64,000 bases of DNA from an uncultured bacterium. GTDB taxonomy: Bacteria > Chloroflexota > Dormibacteria > Aeolococcales > Aeolococcaceae. Made by a program: the position numbers and the translations under genes. Under the pieces are notes generated by a model, which was not told the origin of the DNA, did no database searches, and saw only the letters and a program-made list of their open reading frames with translations. Each line of letters opens with the position of its first letter. Positions within the stretch are counted from its first letter, which is position 1. Of this stretch, positions 2,505 through 41,711 are shown in pieces. The DNA is taken from positions 153,512-217,511 of the forward strand of contig CAWJYZ010000003.1 in NCBI GenBank assembly GCA_963847225.1, in the 5' to 3' direction.

Positions 2505-3448
2505 GCGGACTGCGCATCGCGGTGGTGTGCGGGGGACCGAGCCCTGAGGCGGAGGTGTCCCGGCTGTCGGCCGCGCAGGTGAGCGCCGCGCTTCGTTCGC
2601 GGGGACACGCGTGCACCACCTTGGAGGTGGACGCCGAGCTGTGGCCGGCACTGCAGGCTGGGAGGTACGACTGCGTCTTCATCGCCGTGCACGGGCGCTT
2701 CGGCGAGGACGGCACGGTGCAGGGGGTCTGCGAGCTGCTCGGGCTGCCCTACATCGGCAGCGGCATCACCGCCACCGCGATCTGCTTCGACAAGGTGATG
2801 GCCAAGCGCCTCTTCCTCGCCGAGGGCCTGTGCACCCCCGCCTGGCTCAGCGTCCCCGCTGTTCCGGACGCTTCTGTCCCCATCGCGGGGCTGATGGAGG
2901 CGGCCGCCGGGGAGCTCGGCTACCCACTGGTGGTGAAGCCCCGTCACGGCGGCTCGACGATCGGCCTGAGCATCGTCCAGGACCCTTCCGAGCTCGTCGA
3001 AGCCCACCGGATCGCCGCCCAACACGGCGAGGTGCTCTGCGAGAGGTTCGTCGCCGGAACCGAGGTCACGGTGGGCGTGGTGAGGGATAATGCACTCCCG
3101 ACCCTCGAGATCATCTCCAACCGCCCCCTCTACGACTATGCAGCGAAATACACCACGGGTCAGAGCCGGCACATCATCCCCGCGCGCCTTCCCGAGGCGC
3201 AGCGCCGCGCCTCACAGGACGCCGCGCTCCGCGCCCATCGCACCCTGGGCTGCCGCGACCTCTCCCGCGTCGATGTCATCGTCTCCTCCCAGGGGACGCC
3301 CTGGGTGCTGGAGGTGAACGCCATCCCCGGGCTCACCGAGCTCTCCCTGCTGCCCGACGCCGCCCGCGCCGCCGGGGTTGCCTTCCCCGAGCTCTGCGAG
3401 GGGCTGGTGCAGCGGGCGCTGGACCGGGCGGCGAGGGGCGGACGGTGA
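2501..3448 (+). CDS. ddl: D-alanine--D-alanine ligase
   Basis: 315 aa with ATP-grasp Ddl motifs (IAVVCGGPSPEAEVS, EVNAIPGLT). The GTG start overlaps the murB stop. Confidence 0.9.
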   Translation: MSGLRIAVVCGGPSPEAEVSRLSAAQVSAALRSRGHACTTLEVDAELWPALQAGRYDCVFIAVHGRFGEDGTVQGVCELLGLPYIGSGITATAICFDKVMAKRLFLAEGLCTPAWLSVPAVPDASVPIAGLMEAAAGELGYPLVVKPRHGGSTIGLSIVQDPSELVEAHRIAAQHGEVLCERFVAGTEVTVGVVRDNALPTLEIISNRPLYDYAAKYTTGQSRHIIPARLPEAQRRASQDAALRAHRTLGCRDLSRVDVIVSSQGTPWVLEVNAIPGLTELSLLPDAARAAGVAFPELCEGLVQRALDRAARGGR

Positions 3449-7898: not shown

Positions 7899-8942
7899 GT
7901 GCGCGCCGTCTACGCCACGGGCTTCGGAGGTGACGAGCCCCTCGCCAACCTCGAGGTGGGCGAGCAGCCCGAGCCGGAGCTCCGCCCCGGCTGGGTGCTG
8001 GTCCGGGTCACCGCCGCCTCGCTCAACCATCACGACCTGTGGACGCTGCGCGGGGTGTCATCGCGACCCCTCACGGCTCCGCAGATCCTCGGCTGTGACG
8101 CGGCCGGTCGCGTCGAGGCCGTCGCCGCTGCGGGGGACGGTGCACCCGCGTCGGGCACGCGCGTCGTCGTCCACAGCGTCATCGGCTGCGGCACCTGTCC
8201 GGCCTGCCGGGCCGGGCAGCCGAATCTCTGCCAGCGGCTGGCCCTGTTGAGCGAGCCGCCCTACGGCGGCGCCCTCGCCGAGCTGGTCGCCGTCCCCGTC
8301 CAGAACCTGGTGCCGCTTCCCGACGCGGTGAGCGACGCCGCGGCCGCCTGCCTGCCGACCGCCTACCTCACCGCCTACCGGATGCTCTTCGTGCGGGCGG
8401 GCCTCCGTCCCGGGATGGCGGTCCTCGTCCAGGGAGCGGGGGGAGGGGTGGCGACCGCCGCCCTCCTCCTCGGCGTCGCCGCCGGGTTGGAGGTGCACGT
8501 CACCTCCCGCGACCCCGGCAAGCGGGATGCCGCGCTCCGCCTCGGGGCCGCCGGCGGCTTCGCCCCCGACGACCGCGATGCCTCTCGGGCCCTGGCCGCC
8601 CGGACGGGCGGCGGGGTCGACGCCGTGATCGAGACGGTGGGGGAGGCCACCTGGGAGCTCAGTCTCCGTTCGGTCCGCCCCGGGGGCACGGTGGTGGTGG
8701 CGGGGGCGACCAGCGGGGCCAACCCCAAGGCGCAGCTGAACCGGATCTACTGGCGGCAGATCACGGTGGCCGGAACCACCATGGGGACGCGCGCGGAGCT
8801 GGAGCGCCTCGTCTCCCTCTGCGCGGCCGGAAGCCTCACCCCCCTCATCGACCGTGAGGTCCCGCTCGCCGATGCCCGCTCCGCCTTCCAGGCCCTCGAG
8901 GCTGGGGAGCAGCGCGGCAAGCTCGTCGTGCGCGTGAGTTGA
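7899..8942 (+). CDS. zinc-binding alcohol dehydrogenase / quinone oxidoreductase (MDR superfamily)
   Basis: 347 aa with a GroES-like N-terminus and a Rossmann motif (LVQGAGGGVATAALLLGVAAGLEV). The catalytic-zinc region is CGTCPAC. GTG start. Confidence 0.8.
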   Translation: MRAVYATGFGGDEPLANLEVGEQPEPELRPGWVLVRVTAASLNHHDLWTLRGVSSRPLTAPQILGCDAAGRVEAVAAAGDGAPASGTRVVVHSVIGCGTCPACRAGQPNLCQRLALLSEPPYGGALAELVAVPVQNLVPLPDAVSDAAAACLPTAYLTAYRMLFVRAGLRPGMAVLVQGAGGGVATAALLLGVAAGLEVHVTSRDPGKRDAALRLGAAGGFAPDDRDASRALAARTGGGVDAVIETVGEATWELSLRSVRPGGTVVVAGATSGANPKAQLNRIYWRQITVAGTTMGTRAELERLVSLCAAGSLTPLIDREVPLADARSAFQALEAGEQRGKLVVRVS

Positions 8943-9005
8943 CCTTTGGACCCGGCTGAGCTGCGGTGTGAGCACATCGCCTGTGCGTGATATCATGCGA
9001 TATCA

Positions 9006-9640: not shown

Positions 9641-10002
9641 GCCAGCGGGTCCCGAGGGCGCCCAAGGCCAAATCGCTTGCGCCCTTTGGCCCCCAGTGCT
9701 AGGGTGAACGAGCTTCAGTGGCCCGAGGGGGCCGCGAGCATCGGGCCTCGCCGGGACAGGTGCAGTGGCGGGGCCTTTGCTTTTGCCCGTCGCCGCTCCA
9801 GGAACCCTCCCCGAACCCAGCAGAGATCTCGCCCGGGCCTCCGGCTCTGAATAGCCCCGGAGGCTGACAATTTCGAACAAATTGACGCAATCATTCCCCC
9901 AACATCTTGTGGGCTCCCGTCCGGGCAAACTCCACATCTTGCGGTTTTGCCCCCAAAAAGGCTTCCCTGCGCGTATTGCCCCGGCTATACTCCTGTCCTA
10001 AT

Positions 10003-11280
10003 GTGAGCCGTCCTCGCCACGTCTTCGCACTCGATCTGGGAACAACCAAGGTCTGCTGCGCCGTCGCCGACATCGAGGCTGCCGGGCTGCGCGTCCTGGG
10101 GGTGGGCGAGGCCGTCTCCAAGGGCATCCGCAAGGGCGCCGTCATCGAGATCGACCGGGCGGCCGAGGCGGTCGCCGAGGCCGTCGACCTCGCCGAGCAG
10201 ATGTCGGGCATCGCCATCGATACGGCGGTCGTCGGGCTCGCCGGCGCGCACATCACCTCCCAGAACAGCCGGGGGGTGGTGGCCGTCGCCGCTGGGCGGC
10301 GTGAGGTTGCAGCCCAGGACGTCGGGCGCGCCATCGACGCCGCCCGGGCGGTGTCGGTGCCCAGCGACCGCCGCATCCTCCACGTCCTGCCCCAGCAGTT
10401 CACCATCGATGGCCAGGATGGGGTCCGCGACGCGGTGGGGATGTCGGGAAGCCGCCTGGAGGTCGACGCCCACATCGTGACCGGGGCGCAGACGGCCATC
10501 CAGAATGTTGTCAAGGTCGTCCACAAGGCGGGCCTCGACGTCGACGACCTCGTGCTCCAGGTGCTCGCCTCCGCCGAGGCGGTGGTCGGCGAGGATGAGC
10601 TGGAGCGCGGCGTCGTCGTCGTCGATATCGGAGGCGGCACCACCGATGTCGCCGTCTTCAACCGCGGCAGCATCGTCCATACCGCCGTGCTCCCCGTCGG
10701 GGGCAACCACGTGACCGGCGACCTCGCCGTGGGATTGCGGTGCGATCTCGACACCGCGGAGGTGGTGAAGCGCAGCTTCGGGCACTGCCTCCAGCTCACC
10801 GTCGCGGCCGATGCCGAGGTGACCCTCACTCCCATGGGCTACGACGAGCCGGTCAACGTCCCCCAGCGCTACCTCGCCGAGATCATCGGGCCGCGGGCCC
10901 GCGAGATCGCCCAGCTCATCGCCGCCCAGATCGAGATGGCGGGACCGCCGTCGCAGTTCGCGGGCGGCATCGTGCTGACCGGCGGGGGAGCGTTGCTGCG
11001 TGGCTTCGCCGAGATGACCCAGAGCGTCACCGACCTCCCCGCCCGGGTGGCGGCGCCGCAGGGAGTGAGCGGGATGAACGATGAGATCCAGGGCCCCGAC
11101 CATGCGACGGTGGTCGGGCTGCTGCGCTGGGCGGCGCGTTATCGGGGGGGCCGGATCGGACGCCGCCTGCCCAGCGCCGGGGGCGGTCATGTCGAGCTGC
11201 GCGGGCGGGTACATGCCCCGGCCAGCGCGGCGGAGGCGGTGGGGGCGCGCTTCGGACGCTGGCTCCGAGAGCTCTTCTGA
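10003..11280 (+). CDS. ftsA: cell division protein FtsA
   Basis: Actin-like ATPase: [42 protein letters not shown]. The probable GTG start at 10003 is in frame, and the ORF track extends to 9907. ftsZ lies directly downstream. Confidence 0.9.
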
Positions 11281-14725: not shown

Positions 14726-16069
14726 TCAGGCGGGCGGACCGGCGGCGAGGGTGATGGACGTCGTGTGCTGCGTCCCGGAGGCGTCCATCCAGCCGAGCTG
14801 GATGGTCTGGTCAGGGTGGTCGCCCTTCAGGGCGGTGGAGAGGTCACCGACGCCGGTGATGGCCGTGCCGTTCACGCTCACGATGACGTCGCCGGCCTGG
14901 AGCCCGGCCCGCGCCGCCGGCGATCCGGGGATCACCTGGGCGATGAGCGCGCCCCCGCTCGGAGATGCCACCGACGGATTCGCGTCCTGCACCTCCACGC
15001 CGATGAGCGGGCCCGAGCCTCCAATGACGACGTTTCCGCTCGCCGCGCCGCTCTGGATCTGATGAACGATGCTCATCGCGGTGTCGATGGGGATGGCGAA
15101 GCCGACGGTGCTGCTGATCCCGGTCCCGGAGGCGACGGGGGCGCCGGAGGAGGAGCCGGCGGTGTCCATGCCCACGACCTTCCCGGCGGCGTCGACGAGC
15201 GGACCTCCGGAGTCCCCGGGAACGATGTCCGCGGCCAGCTGGATGGCGCCGTTGAGCGTCTCCGAGGTGGCGCCGTCGCTCGCCGTCACCGTCTGATCGA
15301 GGGCGGTGACGGTGCCGGCGACGACGGCCGGGCTACCCCCTCGTCCGTAGGCGTTGCCGAGGGCCACCACCTGATCGCCGACCTGGAGGGAGGACGAATC
15401 GCCGATGGGAGCGGCCCTCAAGGTCGGGGCGTTCTCGATCTGGAGGAGAGCCACGTCGTCGGTCGCGTCATAGCCCAGCACCTTGGCCGAGTAGGTCGGA
15501 CCCTGACCGTCCACCTGGGCGGTGATGTTGGTGGCGCCGTCGATCACGTGGTTGTTGGTGAGCACCTCGCCGCTCGAGGTGATGATGATCCCGGTGCCTG
15601 CTGCCGGCGAGCCGTTGATGACGTCCTTGATGTCGACGACAGAGGGGTCGATCGCGGCGGCGATGGTGGAGGCGTTGGCGCTCCCCCCACCGGTGGATGG
15701 CGAGCCGCTCGGGCTCTGCCCTCCCCGCAGGGCCAGGCCGATGCCCGCGCCCACCCCGCCGGCGGCGAGGGCGACCGCCACGCCGCCGGCGAGCATCGCC
15801 GCCAGCAGGCGCCGGCGATGGCGGGGCGGCCGGGGCGCCGCCGCCGGATGGCCCGGCGGCGGTGGATAGGGAGGCGGATAGGGAGGCCCCCAGAAGGGGG
15901 GGCCCCAGGTGGGGGGACCCCAGCTCTGCTCAGGCGGGGACCATGCCGGGGGGTCGCCAGCCCCCGGTGCGGGTGGGGGAGGCGCGGCCCACGATTCCCA
16001 CGCGGCACCGGCGTCGGAGGGCTGGCCGGCGGTCTCGGGCGGTTCGTTGGTGCTCGGTGTCTCAGTCAT
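14726..16069 (-). CDS. htrA: HtrA/DegP-family trypsin-like serine protease with PDZ domain, proline-rich N-terminus
   Basis: Catalytic triad context is present (TNNHVI, DVALLQ, GDSGGPLVD), with a C-terminal PDZ domain. The N-terminal roughly 90 aa are Pro/Trp-rich (PPYPPPYPPPPGHP), followed by a TM helix. Confidence 0.85.
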   Translation of the reverse strand: MTETPSTNEPPETAGQPSDAGAAWESWAAPPPPAPGAGDPPAWSPPEQSWGPPTWGPPFWGPPYPPPYPPPPGHPAAAPRPPRHRRRLLAAMLAGGVAVALAAGGVGAGIGLALRGGQSPSGSPSTGGGSANASTIAAAIDPSVVDIKDVINGSPAAGTGIIITSSGEVLTNNHVIDGATNITAQVDGQGPTYSAKVLGYDATDDVALLQIENAPTLRAAPIGDSSSLQVGDQVVALGNAYGRGGSPAVVAGTVTALDQTVTASDGATSETLNGAIQLAADIVPGDSGGPLVDAAGKVVGMDTAGSSSGAPVASGTGISSTVGFAIPIDTAMSIVHQIQSGAASGNVVIGGSGPLIGVEVQDANPSVASPSGGALIAQVIPGSPAARAGLQAGDVIVSVNGTAITGVGDLSTALKGDHPDQTIQLGWMDASGTQHTTSITLAAGPPA

Positions 16070-16234
16070 CTCTCGTCAACCTCATCTGCATCACGAGACG
16101 AAGCCTAGGAGGGACATGCTTTCAAGCTCATGACGCTGGTGCGGGGGATGGCGCACCGATCGGGGCGCGCGGCGGTTCCGCGGCTCGGGAGGGCGGTCGG
16201 AGGCTGGGTCCGCCACGGGCTCCATCTGGTGGAG

Positions 16235-32369: not shown

Positions 32370-32746
32370 TGGTGGAGCCGAGGGGAATCGAACCCCTGTC
32401 CGAAACCGCGTTCCGCGTGACCTCTACGAGCGTAGTCCCGGTTTTGCTCTCACTCTCGGCGCGCCCTGGGACCAGGCTCGCCGGGAGCCAGCCGCGGTGA
32501 GCGTCCCGGCCGGCGCCGCGGCGCCACCGGCCGGCGAGACCGCTGGTATTTACGTCGGCTCAGGCCCCCGCGGTCGAGGGACCCGACGACGTCAGGCCGT
32601 GGCCTGAGCTTTTTCTCGTTCTACCGCTTACGCGGCGAGGGCGAGAGCAGGTGCGTCGTTCGCACGTATTGTTTTCCCGGTTTTACGAGCCCGGGGCTCG
32701 GCCCGCCATCACACGACCCACGATCCCGTCGAATCCATACGGCCCC
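32370..32746 (-). ncRNA. ssrA: transfer-messenger RNA (tmRNA, ssrA); encoded tag (A)NDAPALALAA
   Basis: The minus-strand 5' end GGGGCCGUAUGGAUUCGACGGG matches the tmRNA 5' consensus. The 3' end ...GGACAGGGGUUCGAUUCCCCUCGGCUCCACCA has a T-arm plus an acceptor stem pairing with GGGGCCG, and CCA is encoded. The internal ORF GCG AAC GAC GCA CCU GCU CUC GCC CUC GCC GCG UAA translates to a tag ending in ALAA. smpB lies 4.5 kb upstream. Confidence 0.85.
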
Positions 32747-32808
32747 GTGAGCACGGCAGCCCGATGGCTGCTGCCGACAGGGAGATGATAGCCGTCCGCC
32801 GGGGTCGG

Positions 32809-33432
32809 TCAAACTGCCGGCTGGCCAGCAGCCCGCCGCGCCGCCTCCTCCAGGCGCTGGCGATATGCCTCCCACCAGCCGGCGTCCACGGGTGGGAGGT
32901 TTTCGCTGCCGGCCTTCCAGCCGACGGCGCCATCGATCATCTCTCGGACGATGTCGGCCTGACCGGCGTGCCGGTTCGTCTCAGCGATCACGTGCACCAG
33001 GATCCGGTTCAGGGTCACCCCCTTGCCGGGCTTCCACCAGGTCACGTCGCCGATGGCCTCGAGGGGAAGCGCCTCGATGGTGGCGTCGGAGTGCGCCCAG
33101 ACCCGCCGGTAGAGATCGAGGATCTCCTCCCGGAACTCGTCGGCGGTCGCCCACATGTCGGCGTTGGGCTCTGCCCCGGCCGCGTACCAGGGGAACCGCT
33201 CCATGTAGGGGACGCCGTCGAATGGCCGGCCGAAGGTCTCGCCGAGGTAGCCGGCCTCGACGCTCGCCACGTGCTTCACGAGGCCGAGCAGGTTGGTGCC
33301 CGTGGGCACCATGGGCCGGCGCACGTCGTACTCGGAGAGGCCGTCGAGCTTCCACAGGAGGGTCTCGCGCGCCTCCCGCAGGTAGCGGTGCAGATCCTCC
33401 TTGGCGCCCGTCGCCGTCATGGAACGCACCAT
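32809..33432 (-). CDS. DinB/DUF664-family protein (four-helix-bundle metalloenzyme-like)
   Basis: 207 aa with the conserved DUF664 pattern (LHRYLREARETLLWKLDGLSEYDVRRPMVPTGTNLLGLVKHVASVEAGY...ILVHVIAETNRHAGQADIVREMIDG). Confidence 0.65.
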   Translation of the reverse strand: MVRSMTATGAKEDLHRYLREARETLLWKLDGLSEYDVRRPMVPTGTNLLGLVKHVASVEAGYLGETFGRPFDGVPYMERFPWYAAGAEPNADMWATADEFREEILDLYRRVWAHSDATIEALPLEAIGDVTWWKPGKGVTLNRILVHVIAETNRHAGQADIVREMIDGAVGWKAGSENLPPVDAGWWEAYRQRLEEAARRAAGQPAV

Positions 33433-33459
33433 ACCGCTAGCTCCGCGGCTTCCGGGATC

Positions 33460-34407
33460 TCAGCTCGCACCGGCGCTCCCGAGCGCGGCGAGACGGGCCT
33501 CGGTGATGCGGATCGCCTCCGGGTTGGTGTCGACGCTGAGGTGGCGCCGGCCCAGCGCCTTGGCCGCCACCGCCGCCGTTCCCGAACCGCCGAAGAAGTC
33601 GGCGACGAGATCGCCGGGGCGGCTGGAGGCGAGGACGATGCGCTGCAGAAGGCGGAGCGGCTTCTGCGTCGGGTAGCCGGTGCGCTCCCGGCCGCTGGTG
33701 GGCACGATGGTCATCCACCAGACGTCGGTGGGAAGCTTCCCCCGCGCCGCCTTCTCGGGGGTCACCAACCCGGGGGCGAGATAGGGGAGGCGGTCGACCG
33801 CCTCGCGATTGAAGATCCATCTCTCCCCTCTCGCGTACCAGAGGATGTTGTCGTGCTTGCGGGGCCAGCGGTCCCGCCCCCGGCCGCCGTAGTCGTAGGC
33901 CCAGATGATCTCGTTGAGGAAGCGCTCGGAGCCGAAGACCTCGTCGAGAAGGAGGCGGACGTGGTGCACGGCATGATGGTCGAGGTGCACATAGATCGAG
34001 CCATGCTCGGCCAGAACGCGGCGCATGGCGACGAACCGCGGGGCCAGGAAGGCGAGGTAGGCGTCGAGGTCCAGGTCGTCGCGGTACTCGTGAGTGGAGA
34101 CGGTCTCCCAGCGGTAGGTCCGCCCGCCGAAGCCCACCCGGGTGCGCTCCCCGGCACCGGTGCGGATGGAGGCGAGCCGCTGCCGCTGCCTCGTGCCGAA
34201 GGGCGGGTCGACGTAGATGAGGTCGACGCAGCCATCCGACAGCGCCTCCAGCACCTCGAGGTTGTCGGCGAGGAAGACGCCCTCGGGGGCCTGTCCCTCT
34301 TGCGGGGCTCCTCCACAGGGTGCGGGCTCCCCCACAACAACCCTGGGATCGTCACCGATCGACACAACCTCGGGATCATCGCCAATCGGCGTTGGTTGAC
34401 GGTTCAA
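33460..34407 (-). CDS. site-specific DNA methyltransferase (beta-class N6-adenine/N4-cytosine, DPPF motif), no adjacent restriction enzyme
   Basis: Motif IV VDLIYVDPPF is near the N-terminus, and motif I DFFGGSGTAAVAAKALGRRHLSVD is near the C-terminus, which is the beta-class order. The N-terminal roughly 40 aa contain a tandem peptide repeat (IGDDPEVVSIGDDPRVVVG). Confidence 0.8.
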   Translation of the reverse strand: MNRQPTPIGDDPEVVSIGDDPRVVVGEPAPCGGAPQEGQAPEGVFLADNLEVLEALSDGCVDLIYVDPPFGTRQRQRLASIRTGAGERTRVGFGGRTYRWETVSTHEYRDDLDLDAYLAFLAPRFVAMRRVLAEHGSIYVHLDHHAVHHVRLLLDEVFGSERFLNEIIWAYDYGGRGRDRWPRKHDNILWYARGERWIFNREAVDRLPYLAPGLVTPEKAARGKLPTDVWWMTIVPTSGRERTGYPTQKPLRLLQRIVLASSRPGDLVADFFGGSGTAAVAAKALGRRHLSVDTNPEAIRITEARLAALGSAGAS

Positions 34408-34457
34408 CTACATGGGTATACGCTTGGGGTCCAGATCCGCCCGCCCCGGAGAGCCCC

Positions 34458-35426
34458 ATGCCTGCTGTCACGACCCCCGACATCCTCACCCTGCCACGCG
34501 TCCCTGAACCGGACCACTCCACGCAGCGCCCCCGCCCCGTCCTCTCCGTCACCTCCGCCCCCAGCGGGCTGGAGGGGGAGGGCTTCCCGGTGCGGCGGGC
34601 CTTCGCCGGCGTTGACCTCACCGCCCTCGATCCCTTCGTGCACATGGACCAGATGGGAGAGGTCCAGTACGCGCCGGGCGAGCCGAAGGGCACGCCCTGG
34701 CACCCGCACCGTGGCTTCGAGACGGTGACGTACATGATCGACGGCACCTTCCGACACCGGGACTCGACGGGTGGGGGAGGGCTGATCACCAACGGCGCCA
34801 CCCAGTGGATGACGGCGGGAGCGGGCATCCTTCATATCGAGCAGCCCCCGGAGGAGCTGGTGGCGAGCGGAGGGCTCTTCCACGGCATCCAGCTGTGGGT
34901 CAACCTGCCCGCCGCCAAGAAGTGGGTGCCGGCGCGCTACCAGGACATTGGCGCCCAGCGGGTGACCCTCCTCGCCTCCCGCGATGGCGCGACGCTGGTC
35001 CGGGTCATCGCCGGCGAGGTCGCCGGATACGACGGCCCGGGCATCACCCACACCCCGATCGCCCTGGTGCACGCCACCCTGGCCCCGGGAGCCGTGCTCG
35101 AGCTGCCCTGGAACCCCGGCTTCAACGCCCTCGCCTACGTCCTCGCCGGAGCGGGCACGGTGGGGGCTGACGGGGTGGCCCCGGCCCGGATGGGACAGCT
35201 CGCGGTGTTCGGGTCCGGCGATTTCATCACGGTGGCCGCGGCGGAGCGCCAGGAGAGCCGTTCCCCGGAGCTCGACGTCCTGCTCCTCGGCGGCGAGCCG
35301 ATCAAGGAGCCGGTGGCGCACTATGGCCCCTTCGTCATGAACAGCCGCGACGAGCTCCTCCAAGCCTTCGAGGACTATCGTGCCGGGCGCTTGGGGACCA
35401 TACCGGCCGACGCCATCACGGTCTGA
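34458..35426 (+). CDS. pirin-family (bicupin) protein
   Basis: The ATG at 34458 has a GGAGAG ribosome-binding site. The cupin metal-binding motif HPHRGFETVTYMIDG is present. Length is 322 aa. Confidence 0.85.
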   Translation: MPAVTTPDILTLPRVPEPDHSTQRPRPVLSVTSAPSGLEGEGFPVRRAFAGVDLTALDPFVHMDQMGEVQYAPGEPKGTPWHPHRGFETVTYMIDGTFRHRDSTGGGGLITNGATQWMTAGAGILHIEQPPEELVASGGLFHGIQLWVNLPAAKKWVPARYQDIGAQRVTLLASRDGATLVRVIAGEVAGYDGPGITHTPIALVHATLAPGAVLELPWNPGFNALAYVLAGAGTVGADGVAPARMGQLAVFGSGDFITVAAAERQESRSPELDVLLLGGEPIKEPVAHYGPFVMNSRDELLQAFEDYRAGRLGTIPADAITV

Positions 35427-37169: not shown

Positions 37170-38174
37170 ATGGAGCTGAAGCGTGAGATCCATCACTCCG
37201 AGATCCTCGACCCCCGGCTCGACTTCGCGGCGTCGCGCACCCCCGTGGAGACCCGCTGGGATCCTCTTCTCGGCTACCCTGCGCGCCTCGTGCGGAGCCT
37301 CAGCCCGCTTCTGCCCCGATCCACCTTCGACCTCAAGGCGCTGGCGGCGAGCACCCGCGAGACCTGCCCCTTCTGCCCGGAGCGGGTCATGTCGGCGACG
37401 CCCCGGCTCGTCCCCGCCATCCACCCCGAGGGACGGATCCACCGCGGGGAAGCTCTTCTCTTTCCCAACCTCCTCACCTACGCCAAGCACAGCTCCGTCT
37501 CCGTCTACTCGCCGGAGCGGCACAGCCTTCCCCTCGAGGAGATGACCGGGCGCCTCATGGCTGACAACCTCGCCACCCAGGTCACGTTCGTCCGTGCGGT
37601 CGCGGCCCATGACGCCTCGGCGCTCTGGGCCTCCGTCAATGCCAACCATCTGCCGCCCTCGGGGAGCTCGCTCTTCCACCCTCATCTGCAGGGGAGCGTC
37701 GACCCGACGCCGTCCACCCTGCAGGTGATGCTCGCCAGCGTCCCCAGGGAGCGGATCGAGATGTACGTTGCCACGGAGCGGCGCCTCGGCGAGCGCTTCA
37801 TCGCCGACACCGGAAGAGTGCGGTGGCTGGCGAGCTTCGCTCCCATCGGCTTCCACGAGGTCCGCGCCGTCGTTCCCGGCCATCTCTCGCCGGCGCAGTT
37901 CGATGAGGCTCTGGTGGAGGAGCTCGGCGCCGGCATTGCGGCGGTCTTGAACCTGTATGCGGAGATGGGGCAGCAGAGCTTCAACATGGCGCTGCTGGGC
38001 GCGCCTCCGGATGGGCGTGACACCATGCTCACGCTCCGGATGGTGTGCCGCGCCAACCCTGGCACCGTCTACCGCTCCGACGTCACGTACTCGGAGCGCC
38101 TGCACTGGCAGGCCGCGGTCGACACGTCGCCGGAGGAGCTCGCCGAGCGCGCTCGGGCGCGATTCTCTCGTTGA
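37170..38174 (+). CDS. GalT-like nucleotidyltransferase (HIT superfamily branch III; galactose-1-phosphate uridylyltransferase / ApnA phosphorylase-like)
   Basis: 334 aa with the zinc-site CPFCP and the active-site HPHLQGS (HxHxQ) motif. Confidence 0.7.
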   Translation: MELKREIHHSEILDPRLDFAASRTPVETRWDPLLGYPARLVRSLSPLLPRSTFDLKALAASTRETCPFCPERVMSATPRLVPAIHPEGRIHRGEALLFPNLLTYAKHSSVSVYSPERHSLPLEEMTGRLMADNLATQVTFVRAVAAHDASALWASVNANHLPPSGSSLFHPHLQGSVDPTPSTLQVMLASVPRERIEMYVATERRLGERFIADTGRVRWLASFAPIGFHEVRAVVPGHLSPAQFDEALVEELGAGIAAVLNLYAEMGQQSFNMALLGAPPDGRDTMLTLRMVCRANPGTVYRSDVTYSERLHWQAAVDTSPEELAERARARFSR

Positions 38175-38314
38175 GCGATGGTGCTGTCCGGGATCAGCGC
38201 GGGAGCGGGCCGCCCGCAGGGATACCGATGGGTGTCGTCAGACGACAGGGGCTCTCAGGGTTCTGGGGCCCATGTTCTCGGCGGACCTGAGCACACCGTT
38301 TCCGGCCTTTTGTT

Positions 38315-38374
38315 AAGGTCACGTTTAAGGTCATGAGGTCCCCGAGGTGACCTTAAACGTGACCTTGTTTTTTC
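38315..38374 (+). terminator. intrinsic terminator: 19-bp perfect inverted repeat AAGGTCACGTTTAAGGTCA / TGACCTTAAACGTGACCTT, 14-nt loop, then GTTTTTT
   Basis: Read directly from the sequence. The arms occupy 38315-38333 and 38348-38366, and the T-run is at 38367-38374. It sits between the convergent GalT-like and dnaK genes. Confidence 0.6.
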
Positions 38375-38447
38375 CCGGAAACACACGCGCCTCGCCCGAC
38401 CCGTTGGCAGGATCCTCGATTCCCTGACCCGGCGTCGAGCCGCCCGC

Positions 38448-41066: not shown

Positions 41067-41711
41067 TCAGCCCTCCGCCGGCTCCTCGGCATACGCGTCG
41101 GCGCCGATCAGCGGGACGAAGCGGCAGGGGCCGAGGTCCTCCGTCACCCAGCCGTCCTGGGCGGCGCGGAGGCGGATCAGCTCCTCGCCGTCCGGCCCGA
41201 TGTGGATGGGGACGACGAGGCGCCCGCCGGGGCGGAGCTGGCGGGCGAGCAGGACGGGGAGGCGGGGCGCGGCGGCGCCGACGGCGATGGCGTCGAAGGG
41301 GGTGCGATCGGGGAGACCTAGGCTGCCGTCGGCGGCGACCACCTCGACGTCGATGCCGAGGCGGCCGAGGCGCCGGGCCGCGGCGTCGGCGAGGGCGGGG
41401 ATGCGCTCCACGCTGATGACCCGCGCACCGCAGGCGGACATCACCGCGGCCTGATACCCGCTGCCGGTGCCGATGTCCATGGCGACGTCCCCCGGACGCA
41501 GCTCGAGGGCCTCGACGATGACTGCCACCATGAGGGGCTGGGAGATGGTCTGGCCCTCGCCGATGGGCAGCGCCCGGTCGGCGAAGGCCTCCTCCCGATC
41601 CGCCGGGAGGACGAACTCCTCGCGGGGCACCGCGGCCATGGCGGCGAGGACGCGCTCGTCGCTCACCCCGCCGGCGCGGAGCCTCTCCATCATGGCTGCC
41701 GCGGTGACCAC
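41067..41711 (-). CDS. pcm: protein-L-isoaspartate O-methyltransferase
   Basis: 214 aa with the SAM motif VAMDIGTGSGYQAAVMS and the PIMT signature GQTISQPLMVAVIVEAL. Confidence 0.85.
   Translation of the reverse strand: MVTAAAMMERLRAGGVSDERVLAAMAAVPREEFVLPADREEAFADRALPIGEGQTISQPLMVAVIVEALELRPGDVAMDIGTGSGYQAAVMSACGARVISVERIPALADAAARRLGRLGIDVEVVAADGSLGLPDRTPFDAIAVGAAAPRLPVLLARQLRPGGRLVVPIHIGPDGEELIRLRAAQDGWVTEDLGPCRFVPLIGADAYAEEPAEG

Follow-up and report, generated by a model that had tools for sequence, protein, structure and literature searches.

A solitary beta-class DNA methyltransferase conserved beside a pirin gene in Dormibacteria, with TTAA as its candidate target

In a stretch of contig CAWJYZ010000003.1 from an uncultured member of the Dormibacteria (64,000 nt and 71% G+C, referred to here as the window), a DNA methyltransferase (MTase) gene is located on the minus strand between a divergently oriented pirin gene and ssrA, the transfer-messenger RNA (tmRNA) gene. 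The closest relatives of the window are metagenome-assembled genomes (MAGs) labelled Candidatus Dormibacteria or Dormibacterota. The MTase is a conserved and syntenic member of an already known and very widespread family of orphan enzymes. On the evidence presented below it is likely to be a stand-alone, long-resident N6-adenine MTase of the beta class that is fixed beside pirin and belongs to a conserved family for which TTAA is the best candidate target, with a tandem repeat at its 5' end that is not a peptide repeat, and with a DinB-family gene and ssrA nearby only incidentally.

A beta-class methyltransferase of predicted adenine specificity

The reading frame of the MTase is contained within a minus-strand open reading frame (ORF) running from 34407 to 33460 (33460..34407 in the ORF listing). 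The features of the gene are as follows.

33460..34335, minus strand: coding sequence of a solitary beta-class DNA MTase of predicted N6-adenine type, 291 aa from the most probable start, GTG 34335 (PF01555, PADLOC, the identical 291-aa database protein P0001, and third-position G+C content)
GTG 34365 and TTG 34407, minus strand: alternative in-frame starts, the TTG being improbable
34198..34209, minus strand: motif IV DPPF, catalytic, of the amino-methyltransferase type, residues 43-46 of the 291-aa protein (sequence reading; invariant in family alignments)
33577..33597, minus strand: motif I FFGGSGT, S-adenosylmethionine (SAM) binding, residues 247-253 of the 291-aa protein (sequence reading; family alignments)

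The protein matches the Pfam family PF01555 (N6_N4_Mtase) over profile positions 1-220 of 221 (E 5e-44, 151.3 bits against a cutoff of 26.7), and the PADLOC MTase_II model PDLC03300 with an E value of 6e-114. Motif IV is N-terminal to motif I with the recognition region in between, which is the circular permutation of the beta class. A preliminary description of this DNA had called the gene an orphan beta-class MTase with DPPF before FGGSGT, and the Pfam match, the motif coordinates, and the lack of a restriction endonuclease nearby all bear this out. Among proteins of solved structure the best sequence matches are to M.RsrI (E 7e-24), CcrM (7e-20), M.BceJIV (2e-19), and M.MboIIA (1.3e-12). 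An AlphaFold (AF2) model built on an alignment of 25 sequences has a predicted template-modelling score (pTM) of 0.75 and a per-residue confidence (pLDDT) mostly of 85-98 in the core, although residues 1-40 are disordered (pLDDT ~40 at residues 1-20) and the recognition loops at 207-246 are of low confidence. The model has the beta-class fold, and its top Foldseek matches in the PDB are CcrM (1.5e-16), M.BceJIV (1.9e-15), and M.RsrI (2.5e-15).

Motif IV sequences of the form (D/N)PP(Y/F) are those of adenine enzymes, and SPP(Y/F) is found in most beta-class enzymes that form N4-methylcytosine (m4C). The DPPF motif is invariant in the family and the top sequence and fold matches are all N6-adenine enzymes, from which we infer that adenine is the target base. 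PF01555 does span both activities, and the structural matches include m4C enzymes (M.PvuII and the rotifer N4CMT); nonetheless, that the MTase modifies cytosine at N4 is highly unlikely, given the adenine-type D-P-P-F signature, the identity of the best matches, and the many relatives named as adenine-specific by the automated annotation of the Joint Genome Institute (JGI).

The MTase scores far below the equivalog cutoffs for CcrM and YhdJ. Like CcrM of Caulobacter (PDB 6pbd), it is a solitary and chromosomally fixed beta-class enzyme of the N6-adenine group that is conserved across a large clade and has the same fold (Foldseek E 1.5e-16, template-modelling score 0.61). However, the two proteins are only ~26% identical, the match to the CcrM equivalog NF050803 in NCBIfam reaches 89.7 bits against a cutoff of 830, and the MTase (291 aa) lacks the CcrM C-terminal domain, the chain stopping ~15 residues past the motif III/X helix (296-308 in the AF2 model). 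The recognition region also differs, and GANTC specificity is therefore not expected. M.RsrI (GAATTC; PDB 1eg2/1nw5) and M.BceJIV (GTWWAC; PDB 8urk) share the motif order and core fold with the MTase, but at 23-28% identity and without an extra insertion of ~35 residues (75-109) that is present in the MTase family; M.RsrI, in addition, belongs to a restriction-modification pair. YhdJ of Escherichia coli is likewise a solitary beta-class adenine MTase of similar length, but the MTase scores 95 bits with its equivalog PRK11524, for which the cutoff is 292 (NCBIfam).

The family-specific insertion directly follows motif IV (residues 75-109, window ~34081-34185) and has the pattern RLxSIRTGxGxRTRxGFxGRxYRxxxVS with invariant R, G, F, G and Y residues. 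It is modelled with moderate confidence (pLDDT ~70) as a long beta-hairpin, and may be an extra DNA-contacting arm.

The methyltransferase is conserved beside a divergent pirin gene in related contigs

The genes flanking the MTase that are required for the comparison with related genomes are these.

34458..35426, plus strand: pirin gene, divergent from the MTase and its conserved synteny partner (PF02678, PF05726); adjacent and divergent in L001, L005, L081, L084, L086, L087, L088 and L089
32809..33432, minus strand: DinB/MST (mycothiol-S-transferase-like) gene, window-specific in the slot between the MTase and ssrA (PF04978, E 2e-46)
32370..32746, minus strand: tmRNA gene (ssrA), tag peptide ANDAPALALAA (ARAGORN; Rfam RF00023, 161.6 bits)
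32785..32812, minus strand: sigma-70-like ssrA promoter, TTGACC-16-TATCAT, its -35 hexamer overlapping the MST stop codon (promoter scan)

Loci of relatives were compared using called genes and Pfam matches for contigs carrying an MTase 71-89% identical to that of the window, with L001 and L005 added by tblastn of the window proteins against GTDB loci. Eight Dormibacteria-type contigs (those listed for pirin above) have the same gene order, with DnaK followed at intervals by HIT, a membrane protein, and a small hypothetical protein, and then pirin divergent from the MTase. Downstream, most of the contigs with sufficient sequence have tmRNA, MFS, ArsR/HTH_20, HflX, SmpB, and fmt; the downstream region of L089 is rearranged and has no tmRNA within 8 kb. 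The MTase is a long-resident chromosomal gene, fixed beside the divergent pirin.

The only variable part of the locus is the slot between the MTase and ssrA or MFS. This is empty in L001 (107 nt, 10882-10989) and L086 (140 nt, 8846-8986), holds a membrane protein of 148-151 aa in L081, L084 and L087, and in L088 contains a radical-SAM gene, AmtB, PALP, a small protein of the same 148-151-aa type, and a TnpB-like gene; L087 also has a PIN toxin pair, located 3' of ssrA. In the relatives the region 3' of the MTase is a real hotspot, to which the MTase itself does not belong.

In the window the slot (32809-33459) is occupied by the DinB/MST gene, which is found in this position in none of the other contigs compared. 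Relative to L086 it forms a block of ~570-620 nt placed between the conserved 3' end of the MTase and the conserved ssrA promoter, which is kept in L086 as TTGAGC...TATGAT (pairwise alignments). Its product is ~35% identical to the MST that is kept elsewhere in the locus of the relatives, copies of which share 64-89% identity among themselves. The DinB/MST gene is the insertion of a divergent paralogue, specific to the window, and the closeness of the MTase to DinB and to ssrA is incidental. The distances given in the preliminary description are accurate, in that 27 nt separate the MTase stop from the ATG of 32809..33432, both genes being on the minus strand, and the tmRNA 5' end, placed ~700 bp away, is 713 nt downstream of the MTase stop. 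The meaningful link that it drew between the MTase and DinB is not sustained, since the pairing is confined to the window.

The same description had proposed that the MTase was acquired DNA at a tmRNA hotspot, or the remnant of a restriction-modification module. Cargo of an island, or a decayed module that has lost its endonuclease at a tmRNA integration hotspot, would account for the closeness of the gene to ssrA, for the varied content of the zone from the MTase to MFS among relatives (the 148-151-aa gene, the radical-SAM/AmtB/PALP block, the TnpB-like gene and the PIN toxin pair), and for the presence of family members on viral contigs. However, the part of ssrA at which islands integrate is its 3' end, and the MTase is 5' of the gene, on the stable side of the variable zone. 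Its synteny with pirin in eight contigs, at 71-89% protein identity, argues that it is not island cargo, and with a G+C content at third codon positions (GC3) of 0.91 it is the same as its neighbours. No integrase, phage, or restriction endonuclease genes are present within ~6 kb on either side of the MTase, and the eight neighbouring genes gave no match to a restriction endonuclease or defence model in Pfam or PADLOC, in agreement with what had been reported at the outset for this neighbourhood, in which pirin, HIT, GalT-like, DnaK, MFS, ArsR, HflX, and SmpB are encoded. The absence of an integrase and the position 5' of ssrA are accompanied by the presence of the gene in all eight of the related contigs, although att repeats were not searched for. 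The relatives with called genes also lack an endonuclease near the MTase, and conservation of the MTase at this position, seen here within the class, is the observation that the preliminary description had named as refuting its reading. We regard an origin as island cargo or as a decayed module as very improbable and largely refuted.

Two further observations concern the mobile content of the relatives. The TnpB-like gene of L088 (13837-14727, Cas12f1-like_TNB) adjoins an inverted tmRNA gene, and L087 has PIN and PemK toxin-antitoxin pairs at 9930-10615 and 15551-16125.

The family is widespread, solitary, and conserved in its recognition region

A protein search returned at least 8000 hits, of which the 120 best are 63-100% identical to the MTase and derive from soil, peat, freshwater, and sediment metagenomes. 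Similarly, a scan of species-representative genomes gave at least 599 pattern matches; 570 of the matches listed encode a relative, and the best 80 loci were analysed. These 80 proteins, 50-80% identical to the MTase, come from Dormibacteria, Acidimicrobiia, Thermoleophilia, Limnocylindria, Anaerolineae, Dehalococcoidia/SAR202, Thermomicrobiales, Roseiflexus, Gemmatimonadota, Vicinamibacteria, Planctomycetota, Sumerlaeota, Spirochaetia, and one gammaproteobacterium. Overall, identities within the family are 50-89% across Dormibacterota, Chloroflexota, Actinomycetota, Gemmatimonadota, Acidobacteriota and Planctomycetota. Conservation is seen here as dozens of hits of at least 70% identity and as synteny in eight Dormibacteria-type contigs. 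In a neighbour-joining tree the sequences are grouped largely by taxon.

More than 80 residues are invariant in the family alignments. A stretch from motif VIII to motif X is near-invariant, with the sequence NEIIWAYDYGGR...KHDNILWY...PYMAPGLVGPEKAARGKLPTDxWWxTIVPTxGxExTGYPTQKP, and in beta-class enzymes this is the target-recognition region. Because it barely varies, all members should methylate the same short sequence, and a single conserved specificity is to be expected across the family.

Neither the window nor the relatives with called genes have a cognate endonuclease near the MTase, and the 80 loci show no recurrent partner. In the Roseiflexus-castenholzii-type contig and in Chloracidobacterium validum, for example, the MTase is solitary amid housekeeping genes. 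When the flanking ORFs were clustered de novo, no neighbour was common to more than 10 of the 80 loci, and the neighbours that are shared are lineage-specific and of housekeeping character (a nucleoside-phosphorylase-like protein, an M20 peptidase, a DNA-alkylation-repair protein, isocitrate dehydrogenase and MscL). Candidates for a recurrent partner gene across the 80 loci were rejected, being either such housekeeping genes or alternative-frame ORFs of the MTase itself.

TTAA is the best candidate for the target sequence

Several solitary enzymes of comparable distribution methylate TTAA. Active Type II MTases that form N6-methyladenine (m6A) at TTAA, and for which no partner endonuclease is entered, are described from Sphaerobacter, Arthrobacter, and two Acidobacteria (Blow et al. 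2016 supplements, PMC4752239). That of Sphaerobacter thermophilus is Sthe_2371 (M.Sth20745I), with 96.8% of TTAA sites methylated (PMC4752239). The Arthrobacter enzymes include M.Asp31YII and Achl_2506 (M.AchA6II), the latter annotated as 'DNA methylase N-4/N-6 domain protein', which is the PF01555 architecture; a TTAA MTase is present in 93% of Arthrobacter genomes, and a role in replication was proposed from TTAA clusters beside dnaA (PMC4752239). Orphans 71% identical to M.Sth20745I are present in uncultured Chloroflexi (Anaerolineae) of Lake Biwa, in which TTAA is 91-98% methylated (Hiraoka et al. 2019, PMC6329791). Four MAGs of marine Chloroflexi also have methylated TTAA, and one orphan MTase of Planctomycetes shares 64% identity with a TTAA enzyme (Hiraoka et al. 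2022, PMC8919816). The remaining adenine orphan of these TTAA-methylated Chloroflexi is a true homologue of CcrM, with 59% identity to an alphaproteobacterial enzyme.

The TTAA orphans (M.Sth20745I, M.AchA6II, and EMGBS3_09240 and EMGBD1_08400 from Lake Biwa) resemble the family described here in being solitary Type II adenine MTases of the same phyla, conserved within taxa (as in 93% of Arthrobacter genomes), with cross-class identities of 64-71% that match those within the family; they are placed in it by description and range, not by alignment of their sequences. Architecture and taxonomic range agree, both sets having the N-4/N-6 domain and occurring in Thermomicrobiales, Anaerolineae, marine Chloroflexi, Planctomycetes, Acidobacteria, and Actinobacteria. 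TTAA is proposed because the two sets agree in their taxa, in being solitary, in their PF01555 architecture, and in an unusually high cross-class identity, and recognition of TTAA with formation of m6A, as by M.Sth20745I and M.AchA6II, is in our judgement reasonably probable for the family. The origin region, to which the Arthrobacter clusters beside dnaA relate, is outside the window.

A number of observations weigh against the interpretation as a whole, and against TTAA in particular. Sphaerobacter is absent from the best 120 hits both of a profile search with four Thermomicrobiales members and of a search with a Nitrolancea member, and the assignment of TTAA draws on phyletic and identity-level coincidence, not on a sequence comparison with M.Sth20745I, M.AchA6II, or REBASE entries. 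The family has members in Spirochaetia (L070, L072), and Spirochaetes have a RAATTY family of orphan MTases (PMC4752239). TTAA counts are uninformative, such that composition gives no independent test. Positional conservation is not absolute, since in one Dormibacteria MAG, L020, a divergent copy (63%) has different surroundings, and a second MTase copy, P0018, 81% identical, is evidently present in the source genome, being recorded on a contig of the same length as that of P0001 (1,460,957 bp). IMG/VR holds 154 relatives that are up to 58% identical, and at least one of its contigs, L094 (46% G+C), has a phage-like string of genes, indicating that horizontal spread occurs; in collections of cultured phages and plasmids the only PF01555 relatives are at most 40% identical.

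The same solitary and conserved MTase could instead recognise a site other than TTAA, either of the AATT type (RAATTY, GAATTC) or one not yet described. The Spirochaetia members of the family, and the RAATTY orphans described from Spirochaetes, leave room for such a target, and over the recognition region (residues 163-298) the best solved match is M.RsrI, a GAATTC enzyme (E 2e-22). Identity to M.RsrI is only ~24%, however, and the documented TTAA orphans are distributed as is the family (from Thermomicrobiales to Actinobacteria, as above), the reported cross-class identities of 64-71% fit it, and the Arthrobacter TTAA enzyme is a PF01555 protein. We therefore think that a specificity other than TTAA is unlikely, and retain TTAA as the preferred target.

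The window contains four TTAA sites, compared with 1.1 expected from a second-order Markov model, and TTAA is thus not below expectation. The loci of relatives have 0-3 sites each, with no conserved cluster. Three of the four sites in the window are within one strong terminator hairpin (38313-38353).

This hairpin (38311-38378), between the GalT-like gene and dnaK, has a perfect stem of 19-21 bp, AAGGTCACGTTTAAGGTCA...TGACCTTAAACGTGACCTT, with a T-run, and a free energy of -43.7 kcal/mol (z = -7.8). Hairpins of a similar kind, with TTAAGG(A/T)C in the stem, follow ssrA in L001 (11505-11530) and dnaK in L081 (~3318-3345).

The tandem repeat is at the start of the gene and is very probably not translated

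Two features are located upstream of the most probable start.

34337..34388, minus strand: 27-nt tandem duplication, two units 80% identical, each ending in an in-frame GTG (34365, 34335) (repeat search; single copy in L086; GC3 0.54)
34395..34421, unstranded: conserved non-coding element made up of GTATACCC and then the palindrome (G)GTTGA-N4-TCAAC(C), with the spurious TTG start inside it (alignments of 6-8 Dormibacteria loci)

The MTase was initially described as having 315 aa and a tandem peptide repeat near its N-terminus. The DNA-level repeat is real, with a 25-nt direct repeat at a spacing of 27 nt and 80% identity (34337-34361 and 34364-34388), but the peptide repeat and the TTG start are not supported. 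The TTG taken by the ORF listing (34405-34407) sits within the palindrome GTTGA-ACCG-TCAAC (34395-34408), and GTATACCC and the palindrome are kept as non-coding DNA in seven of the eight Dormibacteria loci, with little change in their distance from the pirin start; in the relatives, 30-170 nt of unconserved sequence separate the palindrome from the MTase start. Codons 1-24 have a GC3 of 0.54, compared with 0.91 for codons 25-315 (binomial P 2e-6); no 24-codon window within the MTase gene falls below 0.75, and two neighbouring genes are at 0.90-0.91. The identical database protein P0001 is annotated with 291 aa, the length obtained when translation begins at the GTG of codon 25 (34335), and the relatives have 16-17 residues ahead of a conserved EGV(V/F)L(G/A)DN, exactly as GTG 34335 gives. 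Finally, the closest relative, L086, with a protein that is 89% identical, has a single copy of the unit, CGATTCGCGATCATCCCCGGGTGGTG, in the same place. For these reasons it is very probable that the repeat belongs to 5' untranslated or promoter DNA and does not encode a peptide repeat, and GTG 34335 is the most probable start of the MTase. A start at GTG 34365 is possible, in which case at most one copy of the repeat would be translated.

In four more distant relatives a GATACT hexamer is positioned 6 nt before the annotated GTG start, often with TGT ahead of it, which suggests that the MTase mRNA is leaderless or nearly so. The 27-nt duplication is probably a duplicated promoter/start segment.

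The element at 34395-34421 has a -35-like TTGACG and a -10-like TATAC on the pirin strand, and is probably the pirin promoter with an overlapping operator. The palindrome was not found upstream of the MTase in other phyla, and occurs only where pirin is the neighbour.

There are three GATC sites in the repeat. GATC was considered as a target and rejected; the window contains 402 GATC sites, and such clusters are common.

Candidate roles

Beta-class enzymes such as M.RsrI, CcrM, and M.BceJIV bind SAM at the FxGxG motif, and the target adenine is flipped into the motif IV pocket and methylated at N6. By analogy, the MTase would bind SAM at FxGxG, flip its target adenine into the DPPF pocket, and transfer the methyl group to N6; if TTAA is the target, both strands of the palindrome would be modified. 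Its mRNA would most likely begin a few bases before GTG 34335. TTAA is very rare in a genome of such high G+C content (71%), with 4 sites in 64 kb, and the resulting mark would be sparse and mostly intergenic. As a candidate role only, such a mark fits regulatory, replication, or self-marking functions better than bulk protection. The absence of a nearby endonuclease together with long residence implies that the MTase is not the protective half of a local restriction-modification pair. It could provide sparse epigenetic marking in replication or transcription, protect against TTAA-cutting enzymes of competitors or phages, or have some other function.

A broader and more speculative proposal, which we hold to be doubtful, is that the MTase is the dormibacterial representative of an ancient and mostly vertically inherited solitary adenine MTase of many phyla that provides a sparse epigenetic signal as a counterpart to Dam and CcrM, and of which, in this genome, both the gene (as P0018) and the promoter/start segment have been duplicated. 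Such an enzyme may span Chloroflexota, Actinomycetota, Dormibacterota, Gemmatimonadota, Acidobacteriota, and Planctomycetota, and here may act on about one TTAA per 16 kb, mostly in intergenic hairpins. With a target so scarce in genomes of high G+C content, a sparse signal in the control of replication or transcription would be the only function left to the mark. P0018 is annotated with 370 aa, including a long and probably spurious N-terminal extension, and a scan of metagenomes for its locus gave nothing closer than 73%.

The locus thus loses its earlier appearance of an island, of a restriction-modification remnant, of an MTase-DinB functional pairing, and of a repeat-bearing N-terminus. 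What it contains is a member of a family that is among the most conserved solitary MTases outside Dam and CcrM, with 50-75% identity between phyla, an invariant recognition region, and synteny within lineages, and that extends to uncultured phyla, Dormibacterota among them. If both TTAA specificity and a regulatory role were true, the family would constitute a third epigenetic system of wide conservation in bacteria. Among its carriers, Roseiflexus castenholzii (DSM 13941, protein ABU57180.1) and Chloracidobacterium validum (QUW04293.1) are in culture.

Other features of the window

The Rfam scan gave no RNA element besides the tmRNA. The gene at 37170-38174 (plus strand) encodes a 334-aa protein that is GalT-like by eye; it has no PADLOC match, and its orthologue in L086 has no Pfam match. 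It is conserved beside HIT in L005 and L086. At 41397-41555 (minus strand) there is a weak match to the SAM-binding end of the MTase (34% over 53 aa, E 0.003), which, judged by position, is probably the PCMT-type protein methyltransferase seen upstream of dnaK in relatives (L081 362-991).

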